Shown piece after piece: positions 3,999-21,060 of a stretch of DNA of 21,060 nt. The stretch covers positions 1 to 21,060 of the forward strand of contig CAZUFC010000069.1 in NCBI GenBank assembly GCA_964619725.1. Reading direction: 5' to 3'. Under the pieces are notes generated by a model. The model ran no database searches. It saw only the letters and a list, made by a program, of their open reading frames with translations, and was not told where the DNA came from. The stretch is from an uncultured bacterium. GTDB lineage: Bacteria > CSSED10-310 > CAZUFC01. The position numbers and the translations under genes were made by a program. Each line of letters opens with the position of its first letter. Positions within the stretch are counted from its first letter, which is position 1.

Positions 3999-4394
3999 TT
4001 ACTTTACGTGACATTCCTTGCATTTTGCAGGCGCCTTTTTGCCTTCTTTAGCGGCGTCCTTGTGGCAATCCATGCAAAGCTTGTGATAAGCGTCCTTGGG
4101 TGGTACCTTATCATCCTTAGAATGACAGCCTGCAGTTTTACATCCTTTCGGCGTTTCTGATTCGTCTTTCATCATATGATGGCATTTCTTGCAGGCGATT
4201 TTTTCTGTTTTGGCATGCTGGTCATGGTCGAAAGTCACTTTACCGAGCTTGCTGTCATATTCGAAAACTTTGCCTTCAACGGACGATTCTGTTTTTTCGC
4301 ACGGTTTTTCAGCTTTTTCCGCTTCATCTCCGGCAAAAAGAACCACGCCGAAAACGATAAGAACAAGCGGTACCAGGAAGATTAGTTTTTTCAT
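3999..4394 (-). CDS. Tetraheme class III cytochrome c (cytochrome c3 family), periplasmic
   Basis: Likely start is the ATG at 4394 (MKKLIFLV..., GGAGG RBS), followed by a signal peptide. Distal His pair VTFDHDQH; heme motifs CKKCHH, CKTAGCH, (YH)KLCMDCH, CKECH; 8 His, enough for four bis-His hemes. Confidence 0.93.
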   Translation of the reverse strand: MKKLIFLVPLVLIVFGVVLFAGDEAEKAEKPCEKTESSVEGKVFEYDSKLGKVTFDHDQHAKTEKIACKKCHHMMKDESETPKGCKTAGCHSKDDKVPPKDAYHKLCMDCHKDAAKEGKKAPAKCKECHVK

Positions 4395-4488
4395 CTCAGC
4401 CTCCTTTTTCCATTCAGATAAAAATGATTCCACGGTTATTTGCCCGAAGGCGCAATTGTTTCAAGCCCTCTGCACTTCTTCTCATCAT

Positions 4489-4517
4489 ATAATAATAGAA
4501 GAAAAAAGATTTGTCCA
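4489..4517 (-). promoter_or_regulatory. Putative sigma70 promoter for the cytochrome c3 gene
   Basis: Minus strand TGGACA (4517-4512), 17 bp spacer, TATTAT (4494-4489). Confidence 0.5.
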
Positions 4518-4551
4518 CACTTTTATCCGTTAAAAGCGATAAGCGGACGGG

Positions 4552-4581
4552 TTGACAAGGATAAAATGCTACTGTTACTTT
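4552..4581 (+). promoter_or_regulatory. Putative promoter for the glycosyltransferase pair
   Basis: TTGACA at 4552-4557, 18 bp spacer ending in TG-n, then TACTTT at 4576-4581 (extended -10-like). Divergent from the cytochrome promoter. Confidence 0.4.
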
Positions 4582-4713
4582 TATTTCCGCGGAAATTACC
4601 CGTAAATTCTGCCTATGATCAAGGATTCCGGTCATCAGGCGCTATCGGGCTGACCGCGGGAACTGCGGGGAACTTCCAGTCAATACCGGCTGAACGATGA
4701 TGGGGAATTATTA

Positions 4714-7332
4714 ATGAAAATAGCCATGGTCAGTTACATGGATTTCAGCGGACCCGGTTCGACGCATATGTACCATTTTGCCGGAGAACTATCATCCATG
4801 GGACACGACCTGTTTCTGACGGTTTACGGCGATCCCCAAAGCGTCGAGCTGATGCATAAGGCTCCGGAATTTCCGGTAAGAAAAGTCGAATTCGACGATC
4901 TTTTTATGAAACGATCTCTTGTGCGGGAATTGTCGGAATTCAGACCACAAATCGTCCATCTATGGACTCCGCGCAATGTTCCCTCCAGGGTCGGCCTGGA
5001 ACTGAAATACCGGTTCGGGACGCGAATCGTCATTCATTATGAAGATGATGAAGATTATCTGGTCCGTTATTACGGCGAGGGACATTTTGAAACGTTTGAA
5101 GATATGTTGAAGGACCTGCGCGATCCGGGAAACTGGCCGTGGAAAGTACCTGTTTTTTCTACGCTGGCGAACAGGTATGCGGACTGTTTTACGGCCATTT
5201 GTCCGGCTTTTATCGAACGTCTGAAGCGTCAATGGGGCAAAGAAGCGCACCTGCTTTATCCCGGAGTGGATACGGACCGGTTCAGCCCTGACGCCGAACC
5301 GACGAAGTCTTCGCTGCCTTTCGAAACTGAGGGGCGTCGTTTGCTGCTCTATTCAGGCTCTATCGGCGCTGTGCATGAATTTCCTCAATTGCTTCAAACC
5401 GTTCACATCCTAAAGAAAAAAAGACCGGAGGTATTGCTGCTGCATATCGGCCGGAACTTGATCCGGGATGAAACGGATCGTTTGATCCGGGAGCTTGATC
5501 TGCAGAATAACGTTATTTTTCTGGGTCCTGTAGAACACCGCAAGATTCATGCCTATCTGGCGCTGGGTGAAATTCTGCTCCAATCCGGGCGCCCCGGAGA
5601 ATTCAATCGTTACCGTCTGCCTTCAAAATTACCGGAATATCTCGCCATGGGCAAACCCGTTGTATGTTTTCATGAAGGCATAGGCCGGGAATTCGCAGAC
5701 CGGAAACATGTTCTGAAGACGTATACCTCTGATCCTGAAGAAATGGCAGAAAAAATCGAGGAACTTCTGGATGATGCGACATTAAGAAAAACGTTGTCGG
5801 AAAATTCGCGAGCCAAAGCTGTGGAATTATTCAACTGGAGACGTAATGCCGGCGTATTGGCCAAGGTCTACAGGGATGTTCTGGACGGTAAATACAATGC
5901 GAATCGTTCAGGAATGATACGGAATACCGACCCCGTTACAGCTCCGCCCATCAGTTTTTCAAAACCGCGTCTTTCCGTCAGAACCATAAGCAAGATACTC
6001 ATCGTGGCCCCGGATATGCCCCCGTTTGAAGGAGCTGTGACCTCCGGTGCGGGATTGAGAGCCTGGTCTTTTCAAAAAAGTCTGGAAGAAGCGGGTTTCC
6101 ATACGCTTTTATCCGCCCCTGAACCAGCGGCTCGACATTACAAAAATATCCCATCAGAAATCAAGGAACTCATGTTCGACCCGCAGCATCTCGAAGAGAA
6201 AATCGCCAGAGTCGATCCCGACCTCGTTCTTTTCTGTCACTGGCCTATGCTGAATCTCTTGAAGGAAAAACCTCACCTGCCCACTGTCCTGGACCTGGCA
6301 GGACCTCATTTTTTGGAGCGGACTTACCTTCCCGGCATGAACGATTTTCAGCAGAACCGACTGGAAAAAATTAGAGCGCTCAGATCGGCCGATTATTTCA
6401 CCTGCGCAGGCGAAAAACAAAAAGCCTATTTCATAAGCTGGCTCATCGCCGCAGGTTTCGATCCCTCTCAAATAAACATCTCCGTCATCCCTATCTCCTT
6501 TCCTCCTGAATTGCCGTCGCATAAAGAAAAACTCGAAGAAATTACGGTGGTCTACTCGGGCATATTCCTGCCCTGGCAGGACCCCGCTAAATCGCTGCGC
6601 TCCCTGATACGCGTTATGATGCAGGAAAACAAAGGACGACTCCTGTTTTTCGGCGGTCTGCACCCGCACCATAACGTCGATCCGGGTATCTTCACTGAAT
6701 TTATCAAGGAACTCAAAGATTGTTCCCGTGTAGACCTTCGAAAGTCAATTCCATATAATGACCTCATTGAAATTCTTCCCAGGGCCCATGCCGCTGTCGA
6801 CCTCATGAGCCGCAATCTGGAAAGAGAAATCTCGTTCAACGTCCGAACCGTCATGTATCTCTGGTGCGGATTGCCCGTCATCTATAACGATTATTCTGAG
6901 CTGAGCCCTCGCATTCAGGATTACGATGCAGGATGGATACTTGACCCGGAGGATGAAAAAGGTCAGGAGAATGTTTTTCGCCGCGTGCTGAATGATGCCG
7001 AAGAACGACGGTCTAAATCGATCAACGCCGGATTGTTGGCCAAAAATGAACTTAACTGGCGTGAAACCATGAAGCCTTTGATTCGATATTGCAGGAATCC
7101 CCTGTTCGCAGAAACGAAAAAGACATGGAACGCTCAACTTGAAACAATTCCGGAAAATTCACATGACATGGCGAGATTGAAAAGTATGTTGCGTGAAAAG
7201 GAGCATCAATTGGACTTGAAAGAAAATCACATTCGGAATCTGGAACATTTCAGGAACAAAATAACGGATAATCCCTTTTACCGTCTTTATGTAAAATCTA
7301 AAACAATCAAACAGCGAATCAAACGACCTTGA
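4714..7332 (+). CDS. Two-domain GT-B (GT4-like) glycosyltransferase with a C-terminal coiled-coil tail
   Basis: Domain 1: MKIAMVS..., YPGVDTDRFSP, LLYSGSIG, PSKLPEYLAMGKPVV, FNWRRNA. Domain 2: KILIVAPD..., VVYSGIFLPWQDP, EREISFNVRTVMYLWCGLPVI, LNWRETMKPL. Tail: LKSMLREKEHQLDLKENHIRNLE...PFYRLY. Confidence 0.88.
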   Translation: MKIAMVSYMDFSGPGSTHMYHFAGELSSMGHDLFLTVYGDPQSVELMHKAPEFPVRKVEFDDLFMKRSLVRELSEFRPQIVHLWTPRNVPSRVGLELKYRFGTRIVIHYEDDEDYLVRYYGEGHFETFEDMLKDLRDPGNWPWKVPVFSTLANRYADCFTAICPAFIERLKRQWGKEAHLLYPGVDTDRFSPDAEPTKSSLPFETEGRRLLLYSGSIGAVHEFPQLLQTVHILKKKRPEVLLLHIGRNLIRDETDRLIRELDLQNNVIFLGPVEHRKIHAYLALGEILLQSGRPGEFNRYRLPSKLPEYLAMGKPVVCFHEGIGREFADRKHVLKTYTSDPEEMAEKIEELLDDATLRKTLSENSRAKAVELFNWRRNAGVLAKVYRDVLDGKYNANRSGMIRNTDPVTAPPISFSKPRLSVRTISKILIVAPDMPPFEGAVTSGAGLRAWSFQKSLEEAGFHTLLSAPEPAARHYKNIPSEIKELMFDPQHLEEKIARVDPDLVLFCHWPMLNLLKEKPHLPTVLDLAGPHFLERTYLPGMNDFQQNRLEKIRALRSADYFTCAGEKQKAYFISWLIAAGFDPSQINISVIPISFPPELPSHKEKLEEITVVYSGIFLPWQDPAKSLRSLIRVMMQENKGRLLFFGGLHPHHNVDPGIFTEFIKELKDCSRVDLRKSIPYNDLIEILPRAHAAVDLMSRNLEREISFNVRTVMYLWCGLPVIYNDYSELSPRIQDYDAGWILDPEDEKGQENVFRRVLNDAEERRSKSINAGLLAKNELNWRETMKPLIRYCRNPLFAETKKTWNAQLETIPENSHDMARLKSMLREKEHQLDLKENHIRNLEHFRNKITDNPFYRLYVKSKTIKQRIKRP

Positions 7333-7361
7333 TGCAACGCTGATCTTCATTCAATTCCATT

Positions 7362-8678
7362 ATGAATAATAAACTCAAAATCGGTTTTTTGACTCAACGT
7401 ATGCTGCTGGGTTACGGAGTCGACCTGGTTGTCGATCAACAGGCCCGCGGACTGATGGATAAGGGCTGGAACGTCACCGTTTTTGCTGACGAAATCAGTG
7501 AATTCTATAAAGACACCCCTTATAAAACCATAGGATTGAGAAGAGATTTAGGCGTAAAACCGCTGATGATAGATCCGGGATATTCAGATGCCTGCCTGGC
7601 GGCCCTGAAAAAAGAACCCGTAGATTTCTGGATCATCCAGACGCCGCCTTACTACTCATGGAAAGATAATCTGGCAAAACCCCTCATCCTGGTCGACCAC
7701 GGAACCCCTTTCGGAAAATTCTTTCATAAGAAAAGAGGCCTCCTGCTCGACGTGGAAACGAGATTGAGGTACAACAGAATCTTCAATCATACGACTTCCT
7801 ATCAGAAGTTAGCGGTTATTTCTGAATTTATCCGTTCGCAATTGCCCCTGCCGGCTCAAGCCGAAGCCGACATTCTCTACAATGGAGTCGATCATTATTC
7901 GTATGCGACGCGGAACGAAGCCATCTCTGTTCGGGAAAAACTGGGAATAAAACAAGACGATTGCATGATGCTGTGCGTCAGCCGTATAGCTTTTGAAAAC
8001 GACGATCAACCTTACAAAGGCGTCCACGAACTCATTAAAATATTTTTAAAATTAAAAAGACGCAATCAGAGATTAAAATTCGTACTGGCCGGCAGAGGTC
8101 AGAAAAAAGATGAAAAACGATTGACTAAATTGGGCATCATTCCCTATTTTAACGTTCCCAGGCATGAGATGCCCGGTCTTTATCACGCTGCTGACATGTT
8201 CGTCAGTCCTTCCCGGTGGGAAGGCTTCAATCTGCCTGCGGCTGAAGCCCAATTCCAGAGCACCCCCTGCCTGGCCCTCGACATCGGAGCGCACAAAGAG
8301 ATCATCAAAGATGGATGCAGCGGCTTAATCGTGAAGAACTATCGACAGTTGAGCGAAGCCATTGAAACGCTGGCCGCAGACCCGGAAAGACTGACCATGA
8401 TGGGCGAACGGGCTAAAGTATGGATTATTCGTTTCGGCTGGTACAAGAACATCAATCGTCTGGAAGAAATGATCACAGAAACTCATCGTAATTATTCGAC
8501 AAATCCCGACCATAGACCTCTTTTCATAAGAAAACCCTGCAAACAAAGAAAATGCGCTTCGGATTATCTGCTCAGCGCCAAATATATCTACCATCATTTC
8601 GGCCTGAGAGAATTGATGTACCGCTCTAAGGTTGCCATGAAAAACAGACTGAAAAATAACGACGAAGAAAAGAATTGA
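7362..8678 (+). CDS. Glycosyltransferase family 4 protein
   Basis: LKIGFL...GYGVD, YNGVD, VSRI...YKGV, and ADMFVSPSRWEGFNLPAAEAQ (EX7E motif). Starts 29 bp after the preceding GT gene, so likely co-transcribed. Confidence 0.92.
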   Translation: MNNKLKIGFLTQRMLLGYGVDLVVDQQARGLMDKGWNVTVFADEISEFYKDTPYKTIGLRRDLGVKPLMIDPGYSDACLAALKKEPVDFWIIQTPPYYSWKDNLAKPLILVDHGTPFGKFFHKKRGLLLDVETRLRYNRIFNHTTSYQKLAVISEFIRSQLPLPAQAEADILYNGVDHYSYATRNEAISVREKLGIKQDDCMMLCVSRIAFENDDQPYKGVHELIKIFLKLKRRNQRLKFVLAGRGQKKDEKRLTKLGIIPYFNVPRHEMPGLYHAADMFVSPSRWEGFNLPAAEAQFQSTPCLALDIGAHKEIIKDGCSGLIVKNYRQLSEAIETLAADPERLTMMGERAKVWIIRFGWYKNINRLEEMITETHRNYSTNPDHRPLFIRKPCKQRKCASDYLLSAKYIYHHFGLRELMYRSKVAMKNRLKNNDEEKN

Positions 8679-8964
8679 TCCGCTGCAGTTTATTCATATT
8701 CCAGGCACAAAAATTTTTCCCGAAACCAGATGATCTGGCGTTTTGCAAAAGACTCTGACCCCGGTCGGCAGCTCAATTAATCCGTACAGCAATATTTCTT
8801 GCATCAATCCGTGCTTTTCACGGTACCTGAATGATCGAATTGTGAATTATTATCCGCATTGGTTCCGTTGCGGTTCCGGTTCTTTCGGAAATGTCCGGGA
8901 AGCATGTATTCAACGAGGTTTGTCGATCCGTATCCGCGTGACTGGATTTTTAACCCGCATCGGA

Positions 8965-8987
8965 AAGCGGCAGGATGCCGCTTCTAC
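8965..8987 (-). repeat. GTAG-type REP-like palindrome
   Basis: Minus strand GTAG-AAGCGGCA-TCC-TGCCGCTT: a GTAG foot followed by a perfect 8-bp stem, lying between convergent genes. Confidence 0.7.
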
Positions 8988-9215
8988 TTTCCCTTCCTTC
9001 TTTGGAGATGATTTTTTTGTCACGGCTATCGAATATCGCTAGAAATATATGCATCGGGGAATGGTTTCGCAGACATCCTTGTTGCAGAAAAGCTGAAAGA
9101 TGTCAGATTTACGGCAATGTAACCCCTCTTGTTCGTTCGATTCGTGGTTGATTTTTGCGAAGTGTAATGACTCCGGTGCACAATTAAACAGACATTATCC
9201 TCAATGAGCTTAGAT

Positions 9216-10802
9216 TTATTCAGCGCCGGCATGCGACAACTGATTCATGCTCCCGCGCACTTTTTCCCTTTCTTCCTCAAAATCGAATCCTGTCCATATG
9301 CCTATTGAATTGAGAATGGAATCCTGGGGATGATATCCCCTGAAGATTTTGTAATAAAACGCGGCCTCTTTGGAATTTATGACGGCATTCGGATTTTCTT
9401 CTTTGATAAGCCGGTATTCCGCATCGCTCATCGCCTTTTCGGCAAGCATCATGCCTATGCTTTCGCATCCGGCGCCCTGCGTATACTGGACTTTATAACG
9501 CCACAAAATATCATCGGGAAGATAGCCTGTCCCGGCAAAGGCTTTCCTCAGTATCCATTTTTCTATTTTAGCGCCGTTTTCCTCTTTGATTTTCAGTTCC
9601 GCCGGTATTTTCTGAGCCAGCGCTATCATCTCAACATCCAAAAAGGGCACCCTGAGTTCCAGGCTGAACAGCATTCCCATTCTGTCGGCGCGTTGCAGGT
9701 TGATGTTATGAAGACTCTTAATGCATCGTCGACCCTCTTCATTCAATTTATCCATAGGAAAATTTTTCATGTACTGGTAACCGGTAAAAATTTCGTCCGC
9801 TCCTTCGCCGGTCAAAACGACCGTGACGTGTTGCGCTGCAAGCTTACAGGTAAAATAACAAGGCACAGCGCAGCGCACGAGCGAAGGATCGTAAGTTTCC
9901 AGCTTGTTTATCACATGAGGCAACGCTTCCTTATAATCATCTATCGTAAAAATGAGCTCGTGATGAGTCGAACCGATATGACGTGCGGCCAGACGAGAGG
10001 CTTTGACGTCGTCACCGACATCGCCGTTTTCGTCACGCATACCGACCACGAAGGTATGCAGGTTGGGTATCTCCTCCGCTGCTATCGCTGCGACGAGGCT
10101 GCTGTCCAGTCCGCCCGAACAGAATGATCCTACCGGGACTTCAGGATCAGCCAACAACCTTTTCTTCACGGCGCGAATAAATGCTTCCCTGATGACTTCG
10201 CTTGCTTCTTCGACCCCCGTTAACCGGTCGTCCTCAACTTCCGGCACCGTGTAATACTCCACAAAACCTTCCTTCGTCGTGTAATAATGTCCCGCGGGAA
10301 ATTCATGCACTTCATCCACGCCGCATAAACTCATCGCTCCCAGTTCTGAAGAAAAATAGAGCGCTCCGTCCTGATGTCCGTAATATAATGGCTTTATCCC
10401 GATGGGATCGCGGGCCAGCATAAGACTGTCTCCGTCCCGTATCGCAAAAGCAAACATACCATCCAGTTCCTTCACGCATTCCGGGCCCATTTCACGGTAC
10501 AAATTCAAAATTACCTCACTGTCCGAATCTGTCTCAAAATCATAGCGGTCCGATATTCGATTCCGCAATTCCTTAAAATTATATACCTCACCGTTGCAGA
10601 CAAATCCCAGCTTTCCCCCTTCTCTCACCATTGGCTGATGTCCTCCGGATACATCCACGATCGATAATCGCGTATGACCGAACGAACCATTCGAAAATTC
10701 ATAAATTCCCCTGTCATCAGGACCTCTATGCCGTAAAGCGTCCAACATCCTATGGACCTTTTTCGTCTCCTTTTTTCCCATACAACCCGCTATCCCGCAC
10801 AT
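9216..10802 (-). CDS. asnB: Asparagine synthase (glutamine-hydrolysing), AsnB family
   Basis: ATG at 10802 gives the Ntn-amidotransferase start MCGIAG; HRGPD, GHTRLSIVD...GHQP, NGEVYN, ARDPIGIKPLYY, SGGLDSS, VLTGEGADEIFTGY, ELRVPFLD, EKWILRKAF; AAGGAG RBS. Confidence 0.93.
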   Translation of the reverse strand: MCGIAGCMGKKETKKVHRMLDALRHRGPDDRGIYEFSNGSFGHTRLSIVDVSGGHQPMVREGGKLGFVCNGEVYNFKELRNRISDRYDFETDSDSEVILNLYREMGPECVKELDGMFAFAIRDGDSLMLARDPIGIKPLYYGHQDGALYFSSELGAMSLCGVDEVHEFPAGHYYTTKEGFVEYYTVPEVEDDRLTGVEEASEVIREAFIRAVKKRLLADPEVPVGSFCSGGLDSSLVAAIAAEEIPNLHTFVVGMRDENGDVGDDVKASRLAARHIGSTHHELIFTIDDYKEALPHVINKLETYDPSLVRCAVPCYFTCKLAAQHVTVVLTGEGADEIFTGYQYMKNFPMDKLNEEGRRCIKSLHNINLQRADRMGMLFSLELRVPFLDVEMIALAQKIPAELKIKEENGAKIEKWILRKAFAGTGYLPDDILWRYKVQYTQGAGCESIGMMLAEKAMSDAEYRLIKEENPNAVINSKEAAFYYKIFRGYHPQDSILNSIGIWTGFDFEEEREKVRGSMNQLSHAGAE

Positions 10803-10955
10803 CAAATTTCTCCTTTTCCTCTTGCTGCTTCTTTTGTTTAATCCGCTTTTCTCTAAAACAGAATCACGCGGATTTGATCGCTCATCATTTAAACCCGATC
10901 CAAAGCCTTCTCAGTCAACAAGAAACTTGCATCATCATCAGAATCAGGCTGATTT

Positions 10956-10983
10956 AACCTATCACAGTGATGAAACGAGTCAA
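10956..10983 (-). promoter_or_regulatory. Putative asnB promoter with a palindromic operator in the spacer
   Basis: Minus strand TTGACT (10983-10978), 16 bp spacer ending in TG-n, TAGGTT (10961-10956); palindrome ATCAC-A-GTGAT at 10961-10971. Confidence 0.45.
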
Positions 10984-11220
10984 GCCGCCGGCTCCGTACG
11001 GATATTAATAAATGAGGACTGGTCAGTCGGCCGGCAAGAAAAGGGTCAGCGAAACTCCGCGAATTCACGAAAAAAGATAGAGAACCGGAAGGCGATCGCT
11101 TGATATAAAGCGTTTGAGTTTCCAGGCATCTATTTGAAAAGCGGATTTGCCGGAAAATGGCATTGATCGAAAATGGGTCTTTTGAGGTTACATTCCTTCC
11201 GAATATCCCATCATTTTGAT

Positions 11221-11255
11221 CCGATTGCGATACCGATGCCGACCCCGATTATCGA
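11221..11255. repeat. Degenerate hexamer tandem repeat (C/G)CGAnn
   Basis: CCGATT GCGATA CCGATG CCGACC CCGATT ATCGA in intergenic DNA. Confidence 0.6.
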
Positions 11256-11372
11256 AAAAAACTGTCAAATGTTTTGAAAAATAGGTAACCCCGGTTTGAT
11301 CAGTCACGGAAATTTATTTACTGATTGAACGTCGTTTCTATGATTCACTTCTATTCACGATTTTACTCTTGT

Positions 11373-11400
11373 TTCGCGTAGATTCGCGATAATTCGCGGA
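11373..11400. repeat. 10-bp-period TTCGCG repeat with an inverted partner at 11056-11065
   Basis: TTCGCG at 11373, 11383 and 11393; AATTCGCGGA (11391-11400) is the exact reverse complement of TCCGCGAATT (11056-11065). Confidence 0.55.
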
Positions 11401-11548
11401 CGATAAATTCTTCGCTCATAAGCCTTACGGCAGGGCTCCGACCCTTAAGGACACGCTTCTGTTCGTTGCCTTTTTCCCTGGAATTTACTCGAATCGAATT
11501 ACTTGAAAGACAACATGATACTCGGTTTCAAATCATAAATTTTTAATT

Positions 11549-12865
11549 TTATTTTGTCCGCAAGCGGCTGTTTTTCTGTAATGATGCGTCAGGCTGCGGA
11601 TTTGCTCTTTCTTCCGCTTTCTCAGCATTACTGATTATCTTCTTAATAGTTTCTTCGGCAAATCGCTCACAACGAAACACAGCAGCCCGCACGATTTTAC
11701 CGCGACGCTTTTTCACATCCGGATTGTAAAATTCCCACACTTTTTTGCCGCTGCGAGTTATTTCAAAAATCCTGCCTTTATCCGATTCCGTGATCAATAT
11801 ATTGCCGTTAGGCAACTCCTGCGCGGCCCCCCTGGTCTCGGAATAAAATGATTCACGAGGACTCCCGTAATATTCCCAGACTATTTCGTTTCGGGTCGGG
11901 TCTACTTCCAGCGCCCGACTGTATTTTCTTCTTCTCGATCCATTATCGAAGATCATTATGTTTCCGTTTTCCAGCAGTGAGGGATCATGAGGTTTGATCA
12001 AATCCTCTTTCCCCCAGCTCCATCGGACTTTTTCCTTCGACAGATCGACGACGGCAGTTAGGTTTAAATTGCGGCAGCATATAAGAACATCGCCTTTTTT
12101 GCATAATCCCGGAACATCACGGGATATCCATTTCAAGGTATTCGTATGAAAAACGTCAAATACCGAATCCGGCATCAGTTTTTCCATGGTTTTATTAACA
12201 TAAGTCTTTGTGGAAATTTTCTTTAAACTCTCCTCAGCGATTTCATGACCCATTATTTCATGCAAGGAATACTCCGTTTTCAATTCACCTTGAGAATTAA
12301 GAACGATGATGTAATCGTTCAATATGGGGATGTCTTCATCATTGTAAGGGATTCTCAACTTTTGCCTGGACAGAAGATAAACATCGCCGTTTTCCGCTAT
12401 GGATATGAAATGATGGAAGCGGCCCTTGCATTTCCACATTATTTCGGAATTCCAGTTCAACTTGGCTGCTGATTGATCTTTAACCAACACGTACAAATCA
12501 CCTTTTTCATCCAAAGCCGCTGTTTGCCAGCCGCTCATCCGGGCTTCCCACTTATGGATTACTGCTCCCTTCATATCCATCAGCACAGCGCTGCTCCTGG
12601 GACGCGACGTAAACAAATTTATCCCGGACCAGGATTTCACCCTGTCATAAAGAATCACGCCGCTCTTATCCTCGTCTTTCTTATCAGAAGGCGCCCATTC
12701 CAGATAACCCAGCGCTTCCAGCCGCTCCGCTTCAGGAAATGTTTCTGTTTTGATCGCCTCCTGTTTTGACCGTTCCCGTGTTCCTTCGCTTTCTGATGAA
12801 TAAGCATTTTTAAAAAACCCGAAAAGCATAAACGAAATAAAACATGTCATAACTATCTTCTTCAT
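11549..12865 (-). CDS. Arylsulfotransferase (ASST) family protein, exported
   Basis: Signal peptide; propeller repeats LMDMKGAVIHKW, IAENGDVYLL, LLENGNIMIFDNG, AQELPNGNILITES, GRIFEITRSGKKVWEF; candidate catalytic-type motifs FHH, HTN, CRN, PHD. Confidence 0.85.
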   Translation of the reverse strand: MKKIVMTCFISFMLFGFFKNAYSSESEGTRERSKQEAIKTETFPEAERLEALGYLEWAPSDKKDEDKSGVILYDRVKSWSGINLFTSRPRSSAVLMDMKGAVIHKWEARMSGWQTAALDEKGDLYVLVKDQSAAKLNWNSEIMWKCKGRFHHFISIAENGDVYLLSRQKLRIPYNDEDIPILNDYIIVLNSQGELKTEYSLHEIMGHEIAEESLKKISTKTYVNKTMEKLMPDSVFDVFHTNTLKWISRDVPGLCKKGDVLICCRNLNLTAVVDLSKEKVRWSWGKEDLIKPHDPSLLENGNIMIFDNGSRRRKYSRALEVDPTRNEIVWEYYGSPRESFYSETRGAAQELPNGNILITESDKGRIFEITRSGKKVWEFYNPDVKKRRGKIVRAAVFRCERFAEETIKKIISNAEKAEERANPQPDASLQKNSRLRTK

Positions 12866-12962
12866 TATCGCCTTTCGCCTTCCCTTCGCATAGTTATATC
12901 GCTGCCCATCAAGGCAAATACAATCCCCGCAACCCCATGGTATCCTTTTAAGTGTCCCGGGT

Positions 12963-14552
12963 TCATTTCTTGATGTAAGCGTATTTAAGCATCATTTTAT
13001 CCAGTATGTTCTGATGTATTCCCTTCACTTCGGGACCATGCAGGTGCTGAGACACGTAAAAATAAATAGGAATAACCGGCAGTTCCTCTTCTATCAGTAG
13101 TTTTTCTGCCTGGCGAAAAATTTCCATTCTTTTCCGGCTCTCCTTCTCCAGGGCGGCACTTCGAATAAGTTCGTCGTATCTTTGATTCGACCATCCGGTA
13201 TTATTGTTGCCTCCGTCCGTAATGAACATATCCAGAAAAGTGTTAGGGTCCGGATAATCCCCTATCCAGGCGGCCCTGCTTAATTGATAATCGAGCGACC
13301 GCTGCGAATTGAGGTAAACTTTCCATTCCTGGTTTTCAAGCTCGACGTGTATGCCCAGATATTTCCGCCATTGCTCCTGGAGCACTTCAGCGATATCCCG
13401 GTGAGCCTCGAAAGTATTATAAAGATAAACCAGTTCCGGGAAATTTTCTCCGTTGGGATACCCGGCTTCGGCCAACAGTTTTTTGGCCGCTTCCGGATCG
13501 TAATGAATCCCCTCCGGACCTTCATAATCGGGAAGCCCCGGAGGAACAAAAGAATCAGCCGGTATTTGTCCGGCCCTGGTCACCCTTTCGGTTATCTGAT
13601 CTTTTCTGATGGTCATGGCCAGAGCTTTTCTGATCCTTACGTCGTTTAAAGGCGGCTCCGTCACATTGCAACGAATGAAATATACCCCCAGATAGGGAGC
13701 GATATGACAATCCGGCCTTTTAATTAATTTATCCATGATGTTGAGCGGCATGCCGTTCGAATCGGTCCATTGCGCTCGCCCCGTCATGTAAAGATTAAAA
13801 CTGGTATTGGTGTTTTCCACAGTCAGGGCCTCGATTGAATTCAGACGAACATTCTCCTTATCCCAGTATGAATGATTCTTCACCAGCAGAAGCCGGTCCC
13901 TCATTCTCCACTCCTCCAGCGTAAAAGGACCGTTGACGACTATATTTTCGGGCTTGATCCAATTCGACCCGTGCTTCTCCACACATCTCCGGTTCACAGG
14001 CAGTAATGTCTGAAAAGAAGTGATGTACAGAAAAAAAGGCGTAGGATTCTCTAAAACGATTCGTACGGTTTTTGCGTCAGGCGCCTCTATGCCCACTTGT
14101 GAAAAATCCTGCAGCTTGCCCTCGTTATAAAGACGGGCGTTTTTTATATACCACAGCATGTAAGCATACTGCGCTGCGGTCTCCGGCTCCAATACCCGTC
14201 GCCAGGACCACACGAAATCATGGGCCGTCACCGGATCGCCGTTGGACCATTGAGCAGCACGCAAATGAAATGTATAAACCAACCCGTCTTCCGATATTTC
14301 CCAGCTCTTTGCCATACCAGGCATATTCTTCAAATCGGTCGGCCGGCTCGTCGTTAATCCCTCAAACAACCCCCGTTCTATCCGACCCTCCGGCACCCCC
14401 GTGGATATGGCCGGATCGATCGTCTCCGGCTCCGTACCCAGAATAAAAGAAAATTCCGCCTGCTCATACGAACAGGAACTGAACATCACCAAACACAGCA
14501 ACACGATGCAATATTTAAAATATCCGCTTAAAATATTCCCTTTCCTTCTCAT
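12963..14552 (-). CDS. oppA: Oligopeptide ABC transporter substrate-binding lipoprotein (family 5, OppA-like)
   Basis: EPETIDP, LFEGL, PGMAKSWEISEDGLVYTFHLR, WSNGDPVTAHDFVWSWRR, NGPF, RAAWIGDYPDPNTFL; lipobox-like MFSSC. Start uncertain (ATG 14552 or TTG 14567). Confidence 0.9.
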   Translation of the reverse strand: MRRKGNILSGYFKYCIVLLCLVMFSSCSYEQAEFSFILGTEPETIDPAISTGVPEGRIERGLFEGLTTSRPTDLKNMPGMAKSWEISEDGLVYTFHLRAAQWSNGDPVTAHDFVWSWRRVLEPETAAQYAYMLWYIKNARLYNEGKLQDFSQVGIEAPDAKTVRIVLENPTPFFLYITSFQTLLPVNRRCVEKHGSNWIKPENIVVNGPFTLEEWRMRDRLLLVKNHSYWDKENVRLNSIEALTVENTNTSFNLYMTGRAQWTDSNGMPLNIMDKLIKRPDCHIAPYLGVYFIRCNVTEPPLNDVRIRKALAMTIRKDQITERVTRAGQIPADSFVPPGLPDYEGPEGIHYDPEAAKKLLAEAGYPNGENFPELVYLYNTFEAHRDIAEVLQEQWRKYLGIHVELENQEWKVYLNSQRSLDYQLSRAAWIGDYPDPNTFLDMFITDGGNNNTGWSNQRYDELIRSAALEKESRKRMEIFRQAEKLLIEEELPVIPIYFYVSQHLHGPEVKGIHQNILDKMMLKYAYIKK

Positions 14553-14744
14553 GGCGGCTTCAGTCAAAATTATAGTTACCCCAACTGAAACAGGTTAAGA
14601 TTCTCCCATCAAACGCGGCCCCTATCCTCACCGCGCCCGCTTCAACCCTATCACGACAACATAGCGTCATTCAAATTAAACGACTTTTTCTGCAATGGCA
14701 ACCGCTATAGCGGAGAATTGTGCTTTTCGGAAAAACAAATGATG

Positions 14745-15380
14745 TTACATTTCATCCGCCGGTTCTGACTCGGCCTCAACCGGCGTTTCCTCTGCTTTTT
14801 CCTCTTCAGCGCTTCCGGCAAAGTCTTCCAGGATTTTCTTCGTATATTCGATATAGTCAGGACCTTTGCCTGGTATTACGGCGTAAATTTTGCCCTTTTC
14901 GTCTATAAGAAAAAAGAAGGGTTGGAAAGTTACCCGGAAATCTTCTGCAGCTTCCGCATTTTTGTCCAGCAAAACCGGCATCTCATATTCTTTTTCGTTG
15001 ACGAACCTTAATATACTTGTCTCGTCAATATTTCCGACGTGAATCAACAAAAATCTGACGCGATCCTCGTATTGATATTTGAATTCTTTGACCGATTTCA
15101 GCGCCTCCGTCGATTGCGGATATCTCAGGGACCAGAAACAGAGGAACAATTTTTCATTTTGCAGGTTCTTGAGTTTTACCGCATTTTCTTTTCTCAGTGT
15201 CGGAAGCCGGAACTTAGGCGCGACCATGCCTTTCTGAAGGGGATATTGAAAATTAACCGGCCGTTTCAATTCCCACATAATGCGGAAAGCCAGCAAAACC
15301 GCTACGCAAAAAGTCAAAGCGATTAAACCGATTCCTGCGGCTCTTACCCAATTCTGTTCTTCCGTCGAAATCAATTTCAC
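14745..15380 (-). CDS. Membrane-anchored TlpA/ResA-like thioredoxin-fold protein lacking CXXC
   Basis: N-terminal TM helix; G.VAPKFRLPTL, LFLCFWS, MPVLLDKN, and cis-Pro loop FQPFFFLIDEKGKI. The usual WCxxC position reads RYPQS. The GTG start overlaps the upstream stop (GTGA). Confidence 0.82.
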   Translation of the reverse strand: MKLISTEEQNWVRAAGIGLIALTFCVAVLLAFRIMWELKRPVNFQYPLQKGMVAPKFRLPTLRKENAVKLKNLQNEKLFLCFWSLRYPQSTEALKSVKEFKYQYEDRVRFLLIHVGNIDETSILRFVNEKEYEMPVLLDKNAEAAEDFRVTFQPFFFLIDEKGKIYAVIPGKGPDYIEYTKKILEDFAGSAEEEKAEETPVEAESEPADEM

Positions 15381-16344: not shown

Positions 16345-18993
16345 ATGAAAACCGGTAAACTGAAAAAGCAGGTTTCAACTTACATTTTTTTTCTGACTTT
16401 TTTCATTTTTTCAGCATCCGTAAACGTAAAGGCGAATTCAAAAGCCTTCGCCGGTACGCATGAAGCGGATTTAAGCGGCTGTTACAGGATGATTGACGGA
16501 AACAGGGTTTCTGCCGGTCAGGCAGAAGCGCCCGTCCGTGAAAGCGGAATGTGGAAAAGAGAACCGGCAGGCTCTAGCTTTTCCACTCAGAAGGATACGT
16601 GGGAAAAGGCGGGGCCCTGGGGCGGATCGATTTATGATATTTGCAGGGATGCCGGCGGAACATTGTATGCCGGTGTGGCGGAACAGGACAGGGGAATTTT
16701 TCGCAGCACGGACAATGGAGCAAATTGGGAACACATGGGCCTTGACGGATACTCGGCATCAGCGGTTGGAGCTGATTCAGCCGTACCGGGCTGGATATAT
16801 TGCGGGACTTTCGACGGAGATCAGTTTCGATCCACAGACGCGGGAGAAAACTGGGAAGATATTTCGTCGGCGCTGCCTGTTACGCTTCGGGCGATAGCTC
16901 CGGACCCTGAAATAAGCATGAAAGCATTGGCCGGCGGATACGGAGGCGCTTTGTACGGCACGACGGACGGAGGCGACAGTTGGTCGGTAAAACACAATCA
17001 CGACGGCAACGTCATTTCCCTGGTTTACGATCCTTCTGACAGCGACATAATGTATTGGGGCTCTGACGATTCATCCGGGCACATTTATATTTTGAAATCC
17101 ACCGACCGCGGGGAATCCTGGTACGCTTCATCGACAGGCGTCCCGAACAATGTCATCATATCAGGAATAGCCGTAAGTCCGACGGATTCCGACAGGATAT
17201 ATGCGACCTGGTGGCCTTTTGGAGGGGTTACCGGTATTTTACGGTCCGTTAACGGCGGTCAAAATTGGACGACATTGGCGACCAACCGGGGCGGCAATGA
17301 TATAAAAACAGACCCGGAAAGCGGAGACATCGTATATGCCGTGGGTTCCAATTCGAGTTTTTCAACGGACGGCGGCGATTCCTGGACTTCCTTCAGCGCG
17401 GGGCATCCGTCAATCGGAGATTTATGGGCTACTTCGATAATGACCGATCCGGCAAATCCCGACACTCTGTTCGTCGCTCTTCACGGCGAAGGCATTGTTT
17501 GGTCGACGGACGGCGGCGCCTCCTGGGCGTCTCGCTGCAAAGGAATGGACGGAGTGGGCATCACCAGCGCATTTATTTGTAAAAACGATGCCGATCGGAT
17601 AGGAGCAGCCACAGGTTCATACGGAGGCGGATATTTTCATTCCGAAGACGGCGGACTCAACTGGTCGGTATCGCCTCCCTACGGTTATGGACCCTGGAAC
17701 CTGAAAACTTACGCTCTCGCTTCTTCGCCGGACGGGGTGAAAATTTACCTGGGCGACTGGAACGATTCCTACAGAAGCATAAATGAGGGTTGGGACTGGA
17801 ATTCCATGGTTGTTCCGCAGGGAACCATGAGAGCGACCTCCTTTGCTGTATACGACGTTAATCCTCATTTAATGTATGCCGGCGTTACCTATCCCGACAT
17901 TGTTCACTTTTCGGAAAACAGCGGCGAATCCTGGCTGGAAAGAGGCGAAGGTTTACCTGCGAATGCTGATTACTGGTTCGCTTTAGCTGTCGATCCTCAT
18001 TCATCCGATATAGCGTATGCCGGCGACTGCAGCAGCGACAGCGACCTGAATAACGGAAAAGGCGTTTACAAGACTACCGACCAGGGCATGACATGGATTG
18101 AAGCAAATGATGGTTTGGCGGCCGGCAGGGCCAGGGCCGCCGTATGGCTGGCGATCGATGAACATGATACCGATACGATCTACGCCGCTACCGGCGACGG
18201 ACCATATCGCTCGCTGGACGCCGGCGAAAACTGGTCCCGCCTCTCCCAGGAATTCGACAATGCTCTCTGCATAAACGTTTCTCCTCACGATCCCCGCCTC
18301 CTCTGCATGACGGCCCGTAAAACAAGTAATTCTGAATACTCCGTTTTTCTGTCGACCGATCAGGGCGAAACCTGGGAAAAATTCGGTTCGGGACTGCCTG
18401 TGCGAAATTCGCTGACCGTCAGTTACGGCCTCTGGTCCTTCCCCTGGGCGGCATTCGATCCGGAAGACAATCGAAAAATGTGGGCAGCCGTAGGCAACTC
18501 CGGACTATGGACAAACGACAACGTTCCTGTTCTGCAGACCATCACCCCTTCACCATCAGTATCGCCCCCTTCCACTCAAACCCCGCCGCCGCAAACCACC
18601 ACTCCCGAACCTACTCCCACAATTGAACTTTTCACCGGCGTCAGGTGCGTTATGCCCGCTTCCCATTACTCTCCCGGCGACATTTTTTACCTCGACCTGC
18701 TCATCGGAAATCAGGGCGAAACTATGCCCGGAATGTACCTTTTCCTGGTTTTAAATATTCTGGGTGACTACTGGTTCTTCCCCTCATGGGTCACATTCCC
18801 GCCAGATGTCGATTATTTGCTCCTGAACATTCCTCATGGTTTATATACTCTACATGCCATCGAAGCTTTTACCTGGCCGCAGATCGACGATGCCTTCTCA
18901 GGCATCCGGTTCCTCTCAGCTATAGTAGACCCCGAAATCATGGACATTGTCGGCGAATGGTGCAACGTCGAGTGGAGCTACGGCCCGCGCTGA
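16345..18993 (+). CDS. Secreted BNR/Asp-box beta-propeller protein (VPS10/GH74-like fold) with a Pro/Thr linker and C-terminal beta domain
   Basis: AAAGGA RBS and signal peptide; GPWGGSI start of the propeller; 13 S/T-x-D/N-x-G-x-x-W Asp-boxes counted; linker TPSPSVSPPSTQTPPPQTTTPEPTPT; terminal ~120 aa domain starting near 18631. Confidence 0.88.
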   Translation: MKTGKLKKQVSTYIFFLTFFIFSASVNVKANSKAFAGTHEADLSGCYRMIDGNRVSAGQAEAPVRESGMWKREPAGSSFSTQKDTWEKAGPWGGSIYDICRDAGGTLYAGVAEQDRGIFRSTDNGANWEHMGLDGYSASAVGADSAVPGWIYCGTFDGDQFRSTDAGENWEDISSALPVTLRAIAPDPEISMKALAGGYGGALYGTTDGGDSWSVKHNHDGNVISLVYDPSDSDIMYWGSDDSSGHIYILKSTDRGESWYASSTGVPNNVIISGIAVSPTDSDRIYATWWPFGGVTGILRSVNGGQNWTTLATNRGGNDIKTDPESGDIVYAVGSNSSFSTDGGDSWTSFSAGHPSIGDLWATSIMTDPANPDTLFVALHGEGIVWSTDGGASWASRCKGMDGVGITSAFICKNDADRIGAATGSYGGGYFHSEDGGLNWSVSPPYGYGPWNLKTYALASSPDGVKIYLGDWNDSYRSINEGWDWNSMVVPQGTMRATSFAVYDVNPHLMYAGVTYPDIVHFSENSGESWLERGEGLPANADYWFALAVDPHSSDIAYAGDCSSDSDLNNGKGVYKTTDQGMTWIEANDGLAAGRARAAVWLAIDEHDTDTIYAATGDGPYRSLDAGENWSRLSQEFDNALCINVSPHDPRLLCMTARKTSNSEYSVFLSTDQGETWEKFGSGLPVRNSLTVSYGLWSFPWAAFDPEDNRKMWAAVGNSGLWTNDNVPVLQTITPSPSVSPPSTQTPPPQTTTPEPTPTIELFTGVRCVMPASHYSPGDIFYLDLLIGNQGETMPGMYLFLVLNILGDYWFFPSWVTFPPDVDYLLLNIPHGLYTLHAIEAFTWPQIDDAFSGIRFLSAIVDPEIMDIVGEWCNVEWSYGPR

Positions 18994-19185
18994 TTACCAC
19001 AGGCGCATCATCACGATTTTATCTTTTTTCTGGACTGATCATACAAAAGGCGCAGCGTTTGCCTATTTCTTCTGCTTTTTGGAATGCTCGCCCTTATTTT
19101 CCCTGGCTGCGGGGTCTTTGTAAGCGTTTCCAATTTGGAAATGAAGCATCCCTGACGTCGAACACCCAATCCCTTTATCGATACT

Positions 19186-19218
19186 AAAAAGCCGCCCGCT
19201 TAGCGGGCGGCCTTATTT
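19186..19218. terminator. Rho-independent terminator between convergent genes (best on the minus strand)
   Basis: AAAAA-GCCGCCCGC-TTA-GCGGGCGGC-CTTATTT: 9-bp GC stem with a T5 tail on the minus strand and a weaker T-rich tail on the plus strand. Confidence 0.85.
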
Positions 19219-19288
19219 ACTTCTTAACCGTCCCTAGGAATTTTCTCTGCAGCGATCTACAAAATCAATCGCACTTTAAACTCATATC

Positions 19289-21060
19289 CTAATCGAATAA
19301 TTTGAATTCACCCTTCAATGCAGAACCGCCGCTACTGCTGCTCAGGAACTTAAACTCATTAACGTCAATGTGTTTCAGCATCCCTGTCTCCGGATCGCTC
19401 AAAATTGTGAGAAATACGTAATCTCCGCCCGGTTCTCTTCCTGTCCAGTCATAACGGAGCAATTCGGCCACGACGTCGGTTCCTGCAGCGAATTCTATAC
19501 CCATAGGCGGGAACAGATCGCCGGCATATTCCTGATTGATCAGCATCATCATCTGCATCTTGAGACGACAATCTTCACCGGGATTGTATATCCTGCAGTC
19601 CACCACGAGCGGATGCCCTTCATAATAGACCATTCTGTCGGACCAGGTATTAATCTGCACCTTGCATGCTGATTCCGGCTGCGGTATGCCCGCAATCGTC
19701 CAGGACCAGCTCTGAACGCCTTCATGGTCAATCATCGCCAATTTGTAAAAATAAGGAACTCCATTTTCAACCTCAGTATCGGTGAACTGGTAATTATGCT
19801 TCTCAAAACTCGTTCCCGCTCCCGGTATTATCTTATCCGTTATGACCTCATAATCGTCGAAATAAGTCGATGAACGATACAGATGGAAACCGATGTTGTT
19901 TATTTCCGTTACTGTCGTCCAGTGCAGGTCTACCTTTCCGTCCTCTGGAACCGCATAGAAATTATACAATTCCACCGGAACCGTAAAAAGGATTTTGACG
20001 TAATCGAAGAGGCATATGTCAGGTCTTGTGTTCCAGGTGAAGACATACACGGGATAGATCAGCTCTTCGAGTCCGGTGGTGTCCCAGTCGACCGAAGCGT
20101 ATTTCTTTTCGCCTACGGCAATATCTTCAAGTATGTAAGGTTCTCCTATCAGAACCGGATTCGGGTCGTCATCGCCTTCCAAAGGCGTCGCATCATAAGC
20201 AAAATATACCTCGGTATAATCCGTATGAATCGCTCCGACATTCTGAACCGCTGCCGTTATAGTAACTATCATTCCGGGGGCGGCCCTTTCCGGATCGAAG
20301 GTTATCTCTTCGATCGGAATTTCCAGTTCAACGCAATCCGGCGTAACTGTCGGCGACGGCGCCAGGGTGGGAGTAAACGTCGGTTCGAAAGTGTACGTCG
20401 GCGGCATAGTGAATGTAGGCGTCGGAGTCATTGTCGGAGTCACAGACGGGGTCAGCGTCGGAGTATCAGTCGGACTCGTCGTGGCCGTTGTCGTAGGCGT
20501 ATTTGTCGGTGTCCAGGTTGGCGTTTCGGACGGAGTCAATGTCGTCGTCGGAGTATCTGTCGGCGTGTCTGTCGGCGTGTCCGTTACGGTCTGTGTCGGC
20601 GTGTTGGTCACCGAGGGAGTCGTCGTCGGCGTATCCGTCGGCGTTAACGACGGCGTATCAGTAGGCGTCTGCGTTATGGTCGGGGTATCGGTCGGGGTCT
20701 GAGTCGGCGTCAACGTATCCGTCGGCGTGTTCGTCGGCGTACCCGTCGGGGTCAGGGTTACTGTCGGCGTCAATGTCGGCGTTAAGGTCGGCGTAAATGT
20801 GGGCGTATCCGTCGGAGTGTCGGTCGGCGTCAACGTTATCGTCGGGGTATCCGTAGGCGTATCCGTCGGAGTCGTCGTTATCGTGGGCGTATCCGTCGGG
20901 GTCCGCGTCGGAGTGTCGGTCGGCGTATCCGTCGGAGTATCTGTCGGGGTTGTCGTAATCGTTGGTGTGTCGGTCGGCGTGTCGGTCGGCGTATCTGTAG
21001 GAGTGAGCGTTATCGTCGGAGTATCCGTCGGAGTCAATGTCGCCGATTGCGTCGTCGTCG
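19289..21060 (-). CDS. Large extracellular-type protein, 5' end outside the window: Thr/Pro repeat stalk, CARDB-like Ig domain, 'PVEL' FN3-like domain, C-terminal beta domain
   Basis: The frame stays open to the window edge (TTTQSATLTP...), so the listed TTG start is an artefact. Over 230 aa of TPTD/TPTIT repeats; ITFDPERAAPGMIVTITAAVQNVG...ASVDWDTT (CARDB-like); VPVELYNFYA...VDLHWTTVTEINNIGFHLYRS...YQFTD...YFYKL...D..G (FN3-like); TAG stop at 19289-19291. Confidence 0.88.
   Translation of the reverse strand, partial: TTTQSATLTPTDTPTITLTPTDTPTDTPTDTPTITTTPTDTPTDTPTDTPTRTPTDTPTITTTPTDTPTDTPTITLTPTDTPTDTPTFTPTLTPTLTPTVTLTPTGTPTNTPTDTLTPTQTPTDTPTITQTPTDTPSLTPTDTPTTTPSVTNTPTQTVTDTPTDTPTDTPTTTLTPSETPTWTPTNTPTTTATTSPTDTPTLTPSVTPTMTPTPTFTMPPTYTFEPTFTPTLAPSPTVTPDCVELEIPIEEITFDPERAAPGMIVTITAAVQNVGAIHTDYTEVYFAYDATPLEGDDDPNPVLIGEPYILEDIAVGEKKYASVDWDTTGLEELIYPVYVFTWNTRPDICLFDYVKILFTVPVELYNFYAVPEDGKVDLHWTTVTEINNIGFHLYRSSTYFDDYEVITDKIIPGAGTSFEKHNYQFTDTEVENGVPYFYKLAMIDHEGVQSWSWTIAGIPQPESACKVQINTWSDRMVYYEGHPLVVDCRIYNPGEDCRLKMQMMMLINQEYAGDLFPPMGIEFAAGTDVVAELLRYDWTGREPGGDYVFLTILSDPETGMLKHIDVNEFKFLSSSSGGSALKGEFKLFD
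20343..21060 (-). repeat. Coding low-complexity tandem repeat (Thr-Pro-Thr-Asp and TPTITL/TT units)
   Basis: Degenerate 12- and 18-bp units such as ACGCCGACGGAT, with synonymous variation, encoding a TP-rich linker. Confidence 0.9.

Follow-up and report, generated by a model that had tools for sequence, protein, structure and literature searches.

A candidate surface-anchoring or sorting tag: a C-terminal beta-sandwich domain recurring on predicted exported proteins of the uncultured phylum CSSED10-310

Several dedicated protein-sorting machines have been recognized through the tags carried by their substrates. The C-terminal domain (CTD) of the type IX secretion system (T9SS), PEP-CTERM, LPXTG, and PGF-CTERM are all high-copy C-terminal tags, and each of them led to such a machine. 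A comparable element is described here from an uncultured bacterium of the CSSED10-310 lineage, in a window (the whole stretch of DNA that was analysed) of 21,060 nucleotides on contig CAZUFC010000069.1 of assembly GCA_964619725.1. Two convergent genes in this window encode a propeller protein and a Thr-Pro (TP)-repeat protein, whose terminal domains are referred to below as tail 1 and tail 2. A sequence-only reading of the window had proposed that the two ends are related and that they represent a lineage-specific export or surface-attachment tag. As judged from sequence comparisons, a large set of exported proteins in CSSED10-310 appears to end as a rule in tail 1, most likely a tag in common use for surface anchoring or sorting. 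Terminal tags on secreted proteins are a known kind of feature, of which this is a new family without an existing model, and the proposed role in export or surface attachment is supported as far as genomics goes.

The tail-1 family was collected with phmmer and then with a converged hidden Markov model (HMM), both run on stop-to-stop open reading frames (ORFs) of the genome to which the window belongs (the window genome, G000; 9.17 Mb, 344 contigs, 90.9 % complete, 6.5 % contamination). It comprises 222 domains in 221 ORFs, which is consistent with the multi-copy tag that had been proposed, as opposed to one or two copies, and the tail-bearing ORFs account for 5.4 % of the bases of the genome. 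Copies occur on 123 of the 344 contigs; among the 103 contigs that reach 30 kb or more, 71 carry at least one, and this wide spread indicates that the copies are part of the main genome. In 208 of the 222 copies, no more than 5 residues separate the end of the domain from the stop codon, and in 6 more the distance is at most 20 residues, so that only 8 copies are situated further inside, as the predicted C-terminal position demands. Identity to the nearest paralogue has a median of 49 %, suggesting that the tails are mostly old paralogues, near-identical pairs aside; for 6 tails the closest counterpart shares 90 % identity or more, which may stem from redundant assembly. Two identical 798-aa tail proteins with identical scores (C36:31726-32070 and C117:12352-12696) probably reflect assembly redundancy and a slight inflation of the copy count. 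The same genome also contains one open frame of 12,092 codons (C34:1691-37966, +), encoding a giant protein with only a weak match to the tail HMM.

Sequence features around the tail are shared by much of the family. The 30 residues upstream of it consist of at least 50 % Pro, Thr, or Ser in 136 of 213 cases, with a mean fraction of 0.47 compared with 0.17 for the proteome. By a crude heuristic, signal-peptide-like N-termini are found in 146-176 of 208 family ORFs versus 1076-1415 of 3431 other long ORFs, and most carriers therefore start in the manner that had been expected of them. The net charge per 115 residues is -12.8 for tails and -11.2 for their cargo, versus -1.2 for other long ORFs. 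Such acidity is as expected for exposed proteins and sets the carriers apart as a distinct, probably exposed class; more broadly, the presumed extracellular proteome of the window genome is acidic and the remainder is not. Tails are rich in aromatic residues (17.4 % versus 10.1 %), including Trp (4.0 % versus 1.4 %). Their consensus holds two invariant Trp and one invariant Pro, located inside short WF-x-PSW and F-x-WP motifs, and ends in a conserved aromatic last strand; in the AlphaFold2 (AF2) model of tail 1, both invariant Trp residues are placed in loops.

The cargo to which the tail is joined is highly diverse and drawn from families typical of extracellular proteins. Among 70 full-length carriers searched against Pfam, right-handed beta-helix and PMP repeats, BNR/Sortilin and Kelch propellers, and peptidases of families S8, S15, M6, M28, M23, C1, and C11 were identified, together with FG-GAP, LTD, VWA, FGE-sulfatase, Exo_endo_phos, and CarboxypepD_reg domains, while 32 of the 70 representatives received no Pfam family. 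The few non-terminal carriers of the window genome include two FGE-sulfatase proteins, a 5'-nucleotidase-like protein, and a neprosin-like protein, and the tail lies just after the signal peptide or internally in L035, L036, L037, and L038 of this genome, as well as in P0036 and P0110 of a library of 1.84 billion proteins. In that library, 2,429 representatives match the tail profile at E<=1e-3. Among the best 149 of these (E up to 5.7e-31), 144 carry the tail at the C-terminus and two carry tandem copies (P0003 and P0019), and 82 of the 112 complete proteins have a signal-peptide-like start. Tail genes are modestly clustered in the window genome, with 29 adjacent pairs versus a mean of 16.9 and a maximum of 29 in random placements with overlaps allowed. 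Convergent pairs whose tails point towards one another are seen repeatedly, as in L002, L004, L022, and the window itself; such pairs make up 6 of the 29.

Comparison with known families suggests that the tail is an undescribed beta-sandwich domain of ~115 residues, lacking a match in Pfam, NCBIfam, or the sequences of the PDB. A Pfam-A search with 32 tails returned no meaningful match (five unrelated families match one member each, E 0.063-0.33), NCBIfam 20.0 matched none of the 32, and the tail profile found no PDB sequence. A word-based homologue search with the tail-1 region, a method that needs shared exact words, returned only the query, and the ESM Atlas gave only unnamed clusters (scores 0.90-0.93). 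The earlier view that this is not a characterised domain therefore holds for Pfam, NCBIfam, and the profile of the T9SS CTD. At the level of structure, tail 1 is modelled by AF2 as a beta sandwich with a mean predicted local distance difference test (pLDDT) score of 97.7, and its best Foldseek match is the CARDB structure 3idu (E 4.2e-5, template-modelling (TM) scores 0.57/0.61), which VIA-align superposes over 96 residues with Z 8.2 and a root-mean-square deviation of 3.2. The top VIA-align matches are immunoglobulin-like (Ig-like) domains of GH66 and GH2 glycoside hydrolases (Z 9.2-8.3), followed by CARDB and the Wzt carbohydrate-binding domain (CBD; both 8.2), RbmA (7.6), and a porphyran carbohydrate-binding module (CBM; 7.5). 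Since several glycoside-hydrolase domains score above CARDB, the resemblance is of a generic E-set/Ig-like kind. Tail 2 is likewise modelled as a beta sandwich (pLDDT 85.8), for which 3idu ranks 12th by E-value and has TM scores among the highest (0.60/0.63).

Within the phylum, the family is widespread but not universal. Tail 1 is present in 11 of 14 CSSED10-310 species-representative genomes, with match counts that run from 57 (in a genome of 2.6 Mb) to 110 or more, the scoring being capped at 110, whereas no match was found in the phylum genomes G001, G002, and G004 or in any of 27 outgroup genomes. In a sample of 401 genomes, only 1-3 weak matches were detected in 4 of the 387 genomes outside the phylum. 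The homologues among these that were examined are true but distant, being C-terminal on signal-peptide proteins that lack a Pro/Thr linker, and Pfam gave nothing above threshold on four outside carriers. The proposed lineage specificity is therefore upheld in that the family is almost confined to CSSED10-310, but the weak, low-copy homologues elsewhere mean that it is not strictly exclusive. Two tail proteins at NCBI bear the name "candidate division CSSED10-310 bacterium", one of them 100 % identical to an ORF of the same-phylum genome G006, which confirms the phylum that the sequence-only reading had named as a bearer of similar tails. The CSSED10-310 genome announcement predicts Gram-negative cells and makes no mention of the tail domain (PMC8248873).

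The relationship between tail 1 and tail 2 is remote, and the two appear to be distant homologues within one superfamily, a conclusion drawn from profile comparisons and predicted structures. It is very improbable that they are unrelated Ig-like end domains whose alignment by eye reflects a chance similarity between beta sandwiches, even though simpler methods would allow it. BLASTP between the tails gives E 0.2, with aligned fragments of only 9-16 residues; in the genome-wide tail-1 HMMER search tail 2 ranks 231st at E 0.21, and five further rounds from the tail-1 family never recruited it. The HMM of 222 members does align tail 2 end to end (model positions 4-113), but with only 16.7 bits. 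Shallow hhalign comparisons are equally weak: 32 tail-1 sequences against four tail-2 sequences reach a probability of 2.6 % over 18 columns, and against eight tail-2 sequences 5.7 % over 92 columns, in the register also seen in the deep comparison. This deep comparison, using the 222-sequence tail-1 alignment, gives 95.7 % (E 1e-8, 96 columns) with four tail-2 sequences and 96.7 % (E 4e-10, 97 columns) with eight from five genomes. Against the same profile, none of 176 controls exceeds 7.9 %: the reversed tail 2 yields 0.3 %, 15 column shuffles a maximum of 4.8 %, and 160 natural 118-aa segments of other ORFs a maximum of 7.9 %. Strand order is identical in the two AF2 models, which match CARDB structure 3idu (TM 0.57-0.63) and similar Ig-like neighbours, and length and terminal position are also common to both tails. 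Additionally, tail 2 was found only where tail 1 is present, namely in 5 of the 14 phylum genomes (5 of the 11 that are tail-1-positive, none of the 3 that are negative) and in none of 27 outside genomes. The similarity that had been noticed by eye is thus a genuine but remote one, weaker than it had been read. Its shared motifs are in register in five of six cases, as the hhalign alignment agrees with Y..G..D..I.N.GE, (F/Y)xW, FL....DPE, and the terminal aromatic strand. The FPP match is out of register, since the FPP in tail 2 is paired with WF-x-PSW in tail 1 and not with the FPP there, a point that would favour chance.

Tail 2 appears from these profiles to be a small, divergent variant outside the main tail-1 family, and it lacks one of that family's invariant Trp residues. 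Its subfamily consists of 4 ORFs in the window genome and one copy each in four other tail-1-positive genomes. The carriers keep a single architecture of TP repeat, CARDB-like domain, Fn3-like domain (a label given by eye and assigned by no tool), and tail. Two of the three paralogues of the TP-repeat protein in the window genome lie at contig ends (C46 and C1), and since long Thr-Pro repeats evidently break assembly, the copy number of the subfamily is probably underestimated.

The organization of the two genes in the window is given in Table 1. The gene at 16345-18993 (+) encodes the 882-aa propeller protein (P0001), which consists in order of a signal-peptide-like start, the propeller, a Pro/Thr/Ser linker, and tail 1, which stops one residue short of the stop codon (18991-18993). 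Its cargo also reaches 141 bits against NCBIfam NF045728, under the cut-off of 175, and a search with the whole protein found only distant BNR propellers of other phyla, with 24-29 % identity over the cargo. The convergent gene at 19289-21058 (-) encodes the TP-repeat protein (P0002), in which Thr-Pro repeats are followed by a CARDB-like domain, a further beta-rich region, tail 2, and a short extension. Its reading frame enters a block of N directly beyond the end of the window (contig ~21060-21160). The CARDB match in its cargo is the only one in the protein and scores 18.9 bits against a cut-off of 22.7, and the extension has AF2 pLDDT values below 50 at model residues 112-124. Both tails had been placed correctly, each as the last domain of its protein. 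The hairpin between the genes looks like a bidirectional terminator, and the region 18800-19500 contains five terminator-like sites versus 0.7 expected from shuffles. Upstream of the tail genes, the window (3999-15380) contains genes for a class III cytochrome c, two GT4 glycosyltransferases, and asparagine synthase-like, arylsulfotransferase-like, SBP_bac_5 solute-binding, peroxiredoxin-like, and Yip1-domain proteins, which have no evident link with the tails.

Table 1. Coordinates of features in the two tail-bearing genes and the region between them
Feature	Position in window	Strand	Basis or remark
Signal-peptide-like N-terminus, propeller protein	16345..16437	+	Lys-rich start, hydrophobic core, VKA-type end; passes crude heuristic
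Cargo: BNR/Asp-box, Sortilin-Vps10-type beta-propeller	16438..18543	+	Pfam PF15902 E 1.7e-26, PF02012 E 1e-15
Pro/Thr/Ser-rich linker, ~26 residues	18544..18621	+	Read from translation
Tail 1, ~118 aa, predicted C-terminal beta-sandwich	18634..18990	+	P0001 residues 764-881 = profile positions 1-118
GC-rich hairpin between the two convergent genes, T-runs on both strands	19191..19211	.	9 G-C pairs
Ser/Gly/Lys-rich extension after tail 2, 15 residues	19292..19336	-	Predicted disordered; three paralogues lack the extension
Tail 2, ~118 aa, putative divergent subfamily of the tail-1 superfamily	19337..19690	-	hhalign, AF2 model
CARDB-like domain in cargo of TP-repeat protein	20075..20320	-	PF07705 E 0.0018, residues 247-328, sub-threshold
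Thr-Pro repeat region, ~245 residues	20324..21058	-	Gene leaves window into assembly gap; N-terminus lost

Searches for known sorting systems in the tail-positive genomes found none of T9SS SprA, sortase, or full-length exosortase. The SprA_N domain (PF14349) was not found in any of the 14 phylum genomes, in a search that covered SprA and not GldKLMN, PorV, or PorU, and that detected PF14349 in both of two Bacteroidota metagenome-assembled genomes (MAGs) used as positive control. Por_Secre_tail domains were found neither in the window genome nor in 11 other phylum genomes; the exceptions are G012, with one match, and G013, a 69 %-complete MAG in which 11 matches lie on short contigs (e.g., C274, C513, and C433) and SprA was not found; these contigs may be contamination from another phylum. 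The tails themselves do not match the T9SS signal in sequence or profile: PF18962/TIGR04183 gave no match at E<=10 in 32 tails, and hhalign against ten genuine Por_Secre_tail domains from two related MAGs gave probabilities of 1.8 % with the 32-tail alignment, 0.2 % with the profile of 222 sequences, and 0.5 % with tail 2. No T9SS CTD is among the matches listed by Foldseek or VIA-align, most of which are generic Ig-like domains. Sortase (PF04203) has no match in the window genome, and Gram_pos_anchor matches one of 32 tails (E 0.27). One ORF of this genome (C14:64567-66534, +) ends in LPATG, a hydrophobic stretch, and a basic end, resembling a sortase signal. The PEP-CTERM HMM (PF07589) found nothing in any genome scanned, in a scan without positive control, and a regular expression found a single PEP-CTERM-like end in the window genome. 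Exosortase (PF09721) is represented there only by an ORF of ~195 aa (C134:13003-13455, -) that matches the second half of the model. ORFs of ~180-265 aa covering only model positions ~101-252 occur in all 14 phylum genomes and may encode a mini exosortase-like protein. Full-length PF09721 is confined to the tail-negative genomes G001 and G002 and is missing from the tail-negative G004, so a complementary distribution of tail and exosortase is only suggestive.

No partner for the tail emerged among the candidates considered. The 6 Omp85-family and 7 secretin matches in the window genome indicate an outer membrane and general secretion routes. As a tail partner, Omp85 was rejected because tail-positive genomes have 2-6 matches and tail-negative ones 4-6, and neither secretin nor Omp85 genes adjoin tail genes, the nearest distances being 1.4 to 47 kb. 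The FGE-sulfatase domain, which presumably resembles the fold of GldK/PorK, was rejected as well, being abundant in all 14 genomes, the tail-negative ones included. In the phylum it is strongly expanded, each genome having 2-38 matches that are frequently arranged in tandem (e.g., G009:C62 and G010:C13). It also recurs in non-terminal tail carriers, such as L035 (C153:3829-6570) and L038 (C179:522-2942), and its abundance in tail-negative genomes makes this recurrence probably a coincidence.

The combination of high copy number, terminal position, unrelated exported cargo, and lineage restriction, with no sorting system found among those tested, points to a common address or anchor tag. In its most specific form, which we consider to have an even chance of being correct, the tail would be a retained, non-covalent surface anchor on a flexible spacer. 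Carriers would leave the cytoplasm through Sec by means of the N-terminal signal peptide predicted from their sequences and would cross the outer membrane by a general route, for which the secretin and Omp85-family genes are available. The tail on its Pro/Thr spacer would then stay attached to the protein and bind non-covalently to a common envelope or matrix ligand, possibly a surface glycan such as lipopolysaccharide (LPS) or exopolysaccharide (EPS), or an outer-membrane protein. The outcome would be a cell surface to which peptidases, beta-helix, PMP-like, and propeller proteins are tethered, with the tail acting as an anchoring module of the dockerin, SLH, or CBM type and not as a cleaved secretion signal; the binding, the retention, and the route of export are what we infer here. 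Retention is favoured over cleavage by the Pro/Thr spacers and by copies that are tandem, internal, or placed just after a signal peptide; homologues at low copy number elsewhere, conserved aromatic residues in loops, and glycan-binding structural neighbours point the same way. Some observations weigh against such an anchor. Of the other ORFs, 31-41 % are likewise positive by the signal-peptide heuristic; the structural matches are of a generic kind, as the best Z is 9.2 while best Z values of 7-8 are common for unrelated models; the terminal position of 94 % of the copies exceeds what a pure binding module would require and fits an export signal too; and no ligand, receptor, or co-occurring gene was found, Omp85 and FGE-sulfatase counts being alike in tail-positive and tail-negative genomes.

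A broader proposal, possible though doubtful, is that the tail is the universal address tag of a phylum-specific, non-T9SS sorting system operating through an unrecognised translocon or attachment gene family. If so, ~3 % of the genes (an estimate) and 5.4 % of the bases of the window genome would be cargo of one undiscovered machine. Somewhat less probable, and in our view unlikely, is a functional analogue of the T9SS in which the tail, recognised in the periplasm, would drive export through a dedicated, unrecognised outer-membrane translocon and later be removed or exchanged for an anchor. Such a signal would explain the terminal position in both the genome and the library, the large number of copies that each positive genome carries, with 57 even in one of 2.6 Mb, the diversity of the cargo, the near confinement to one phylum, and the conserved aromatic last strand. 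It is difficult to reconcile with the lack of a T9SS core in the SprA and Por_Secre_tail searches and of any candidate translocon, with Omp85 numbers that are the same in tail-negative genomes, with tails that follow the signal peptide or are internal or tandem, and with Pro/Thr spacers, which are generally typical of retained modules. Moreover, the 1-3 copies per genome outside the phylum are too few to justify a dedicated machine. Still lower stands the improbable case of a substrate- or matrix-binding module of CBM or adhesin type, which would target external polymers or the biofilm matrix and play no part in sorting or cell attachment. The closeness of the fold to CARDB, the Wzt CBD, the porphyran CBM, RbmA, and Ig-like domains of glycoside hydrolases agrees with it, as do the aromatic-rich conserved motifs, the Pro/Thr linkers before most tails, and a source labelled microbial mat metagenome. 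However, one binding specificity shared by ~220 unrelated proteins, among them peptidases, nucleases, and VWA and LTD proteins, would be unusual, CBMs are in general not 94 % terminal, and no CBM family matches in sequence. The sequence-only reading had itself named the observations that would speak against it (no similarity of profile or structure between the tails, one or two copies per genome, frequent internal or cytoplasmic occurrence, or a strong match to a characterised domain); each was looked for, and none was found.

In this rare, uncultured phylum, each tail-positive genome encodes between roughly 60 and more than 200 exported proteins marked by the tail. The tail thereby provides an operational definition of the surface and secreted proteome of the phylum, and it could be turned into a new annotation model for the family. 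The presence of 11 positive and 3 negative genomes within one phylum also makes the search for a partner well-posed.

Among described systems, the T9SS CTDs (type A, PF18962/TIGR04183; type B, TIGR04131) are similar to the tail in being small, all-beta, last domains of signal-peptide proteins with diverse cargo, lineage-restricted, and numbering tens to hundreds in a genome. The tail differs from them in lacking a sequence or profile relationship and, across the 14 genomes, a detectable SprA; in its length (~115 aa versus the 75 positions of the Pfam model); in the Pro/Thr spacer that usually precedes it; and in the copies that occur just after a signal peptide, internally, or in tandem. PEP-CTERM is unlike the tail, a globular beta domain without a hydrophobic helix. 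The PPC domain (PF04151) of secreted proteases is likewise a C-terminal beta-sandwich on secreted enzymes, which aids secretion and is then removed. It has no sequence match among the 32 tails and, to our knowledge, has neither been expanded to hundreds of copies nor joined to so many types of cargo. CARDB (PF07705; PDB 3idu) has a fold like that of both tails, as other Ig-like domains do with equally high scores; unlike the fold, its HMM matches none of the 32 tails even at E<=10. Dockerin and SLH have no Pfam match in any of these tails, and the all-beta sandwich of the tail model corresponds to neither fold; in contrast to dockerin, the tail has no recognised cohesin-like partner and belongs to a host that appears to have an outer membrane. 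CBM families gave no Pfam match with the 32 tails either, but the modelled tail fold lies near the Wzt CBD and the porphyran CBM, and conserved aromatic residues are present. With dockerin, SLH, and CBM-type anchors, the tail shares the arrangement of a terminal module placed after a Pro/Thr linker on varied enzymes, which it would presumably hold at the surface.

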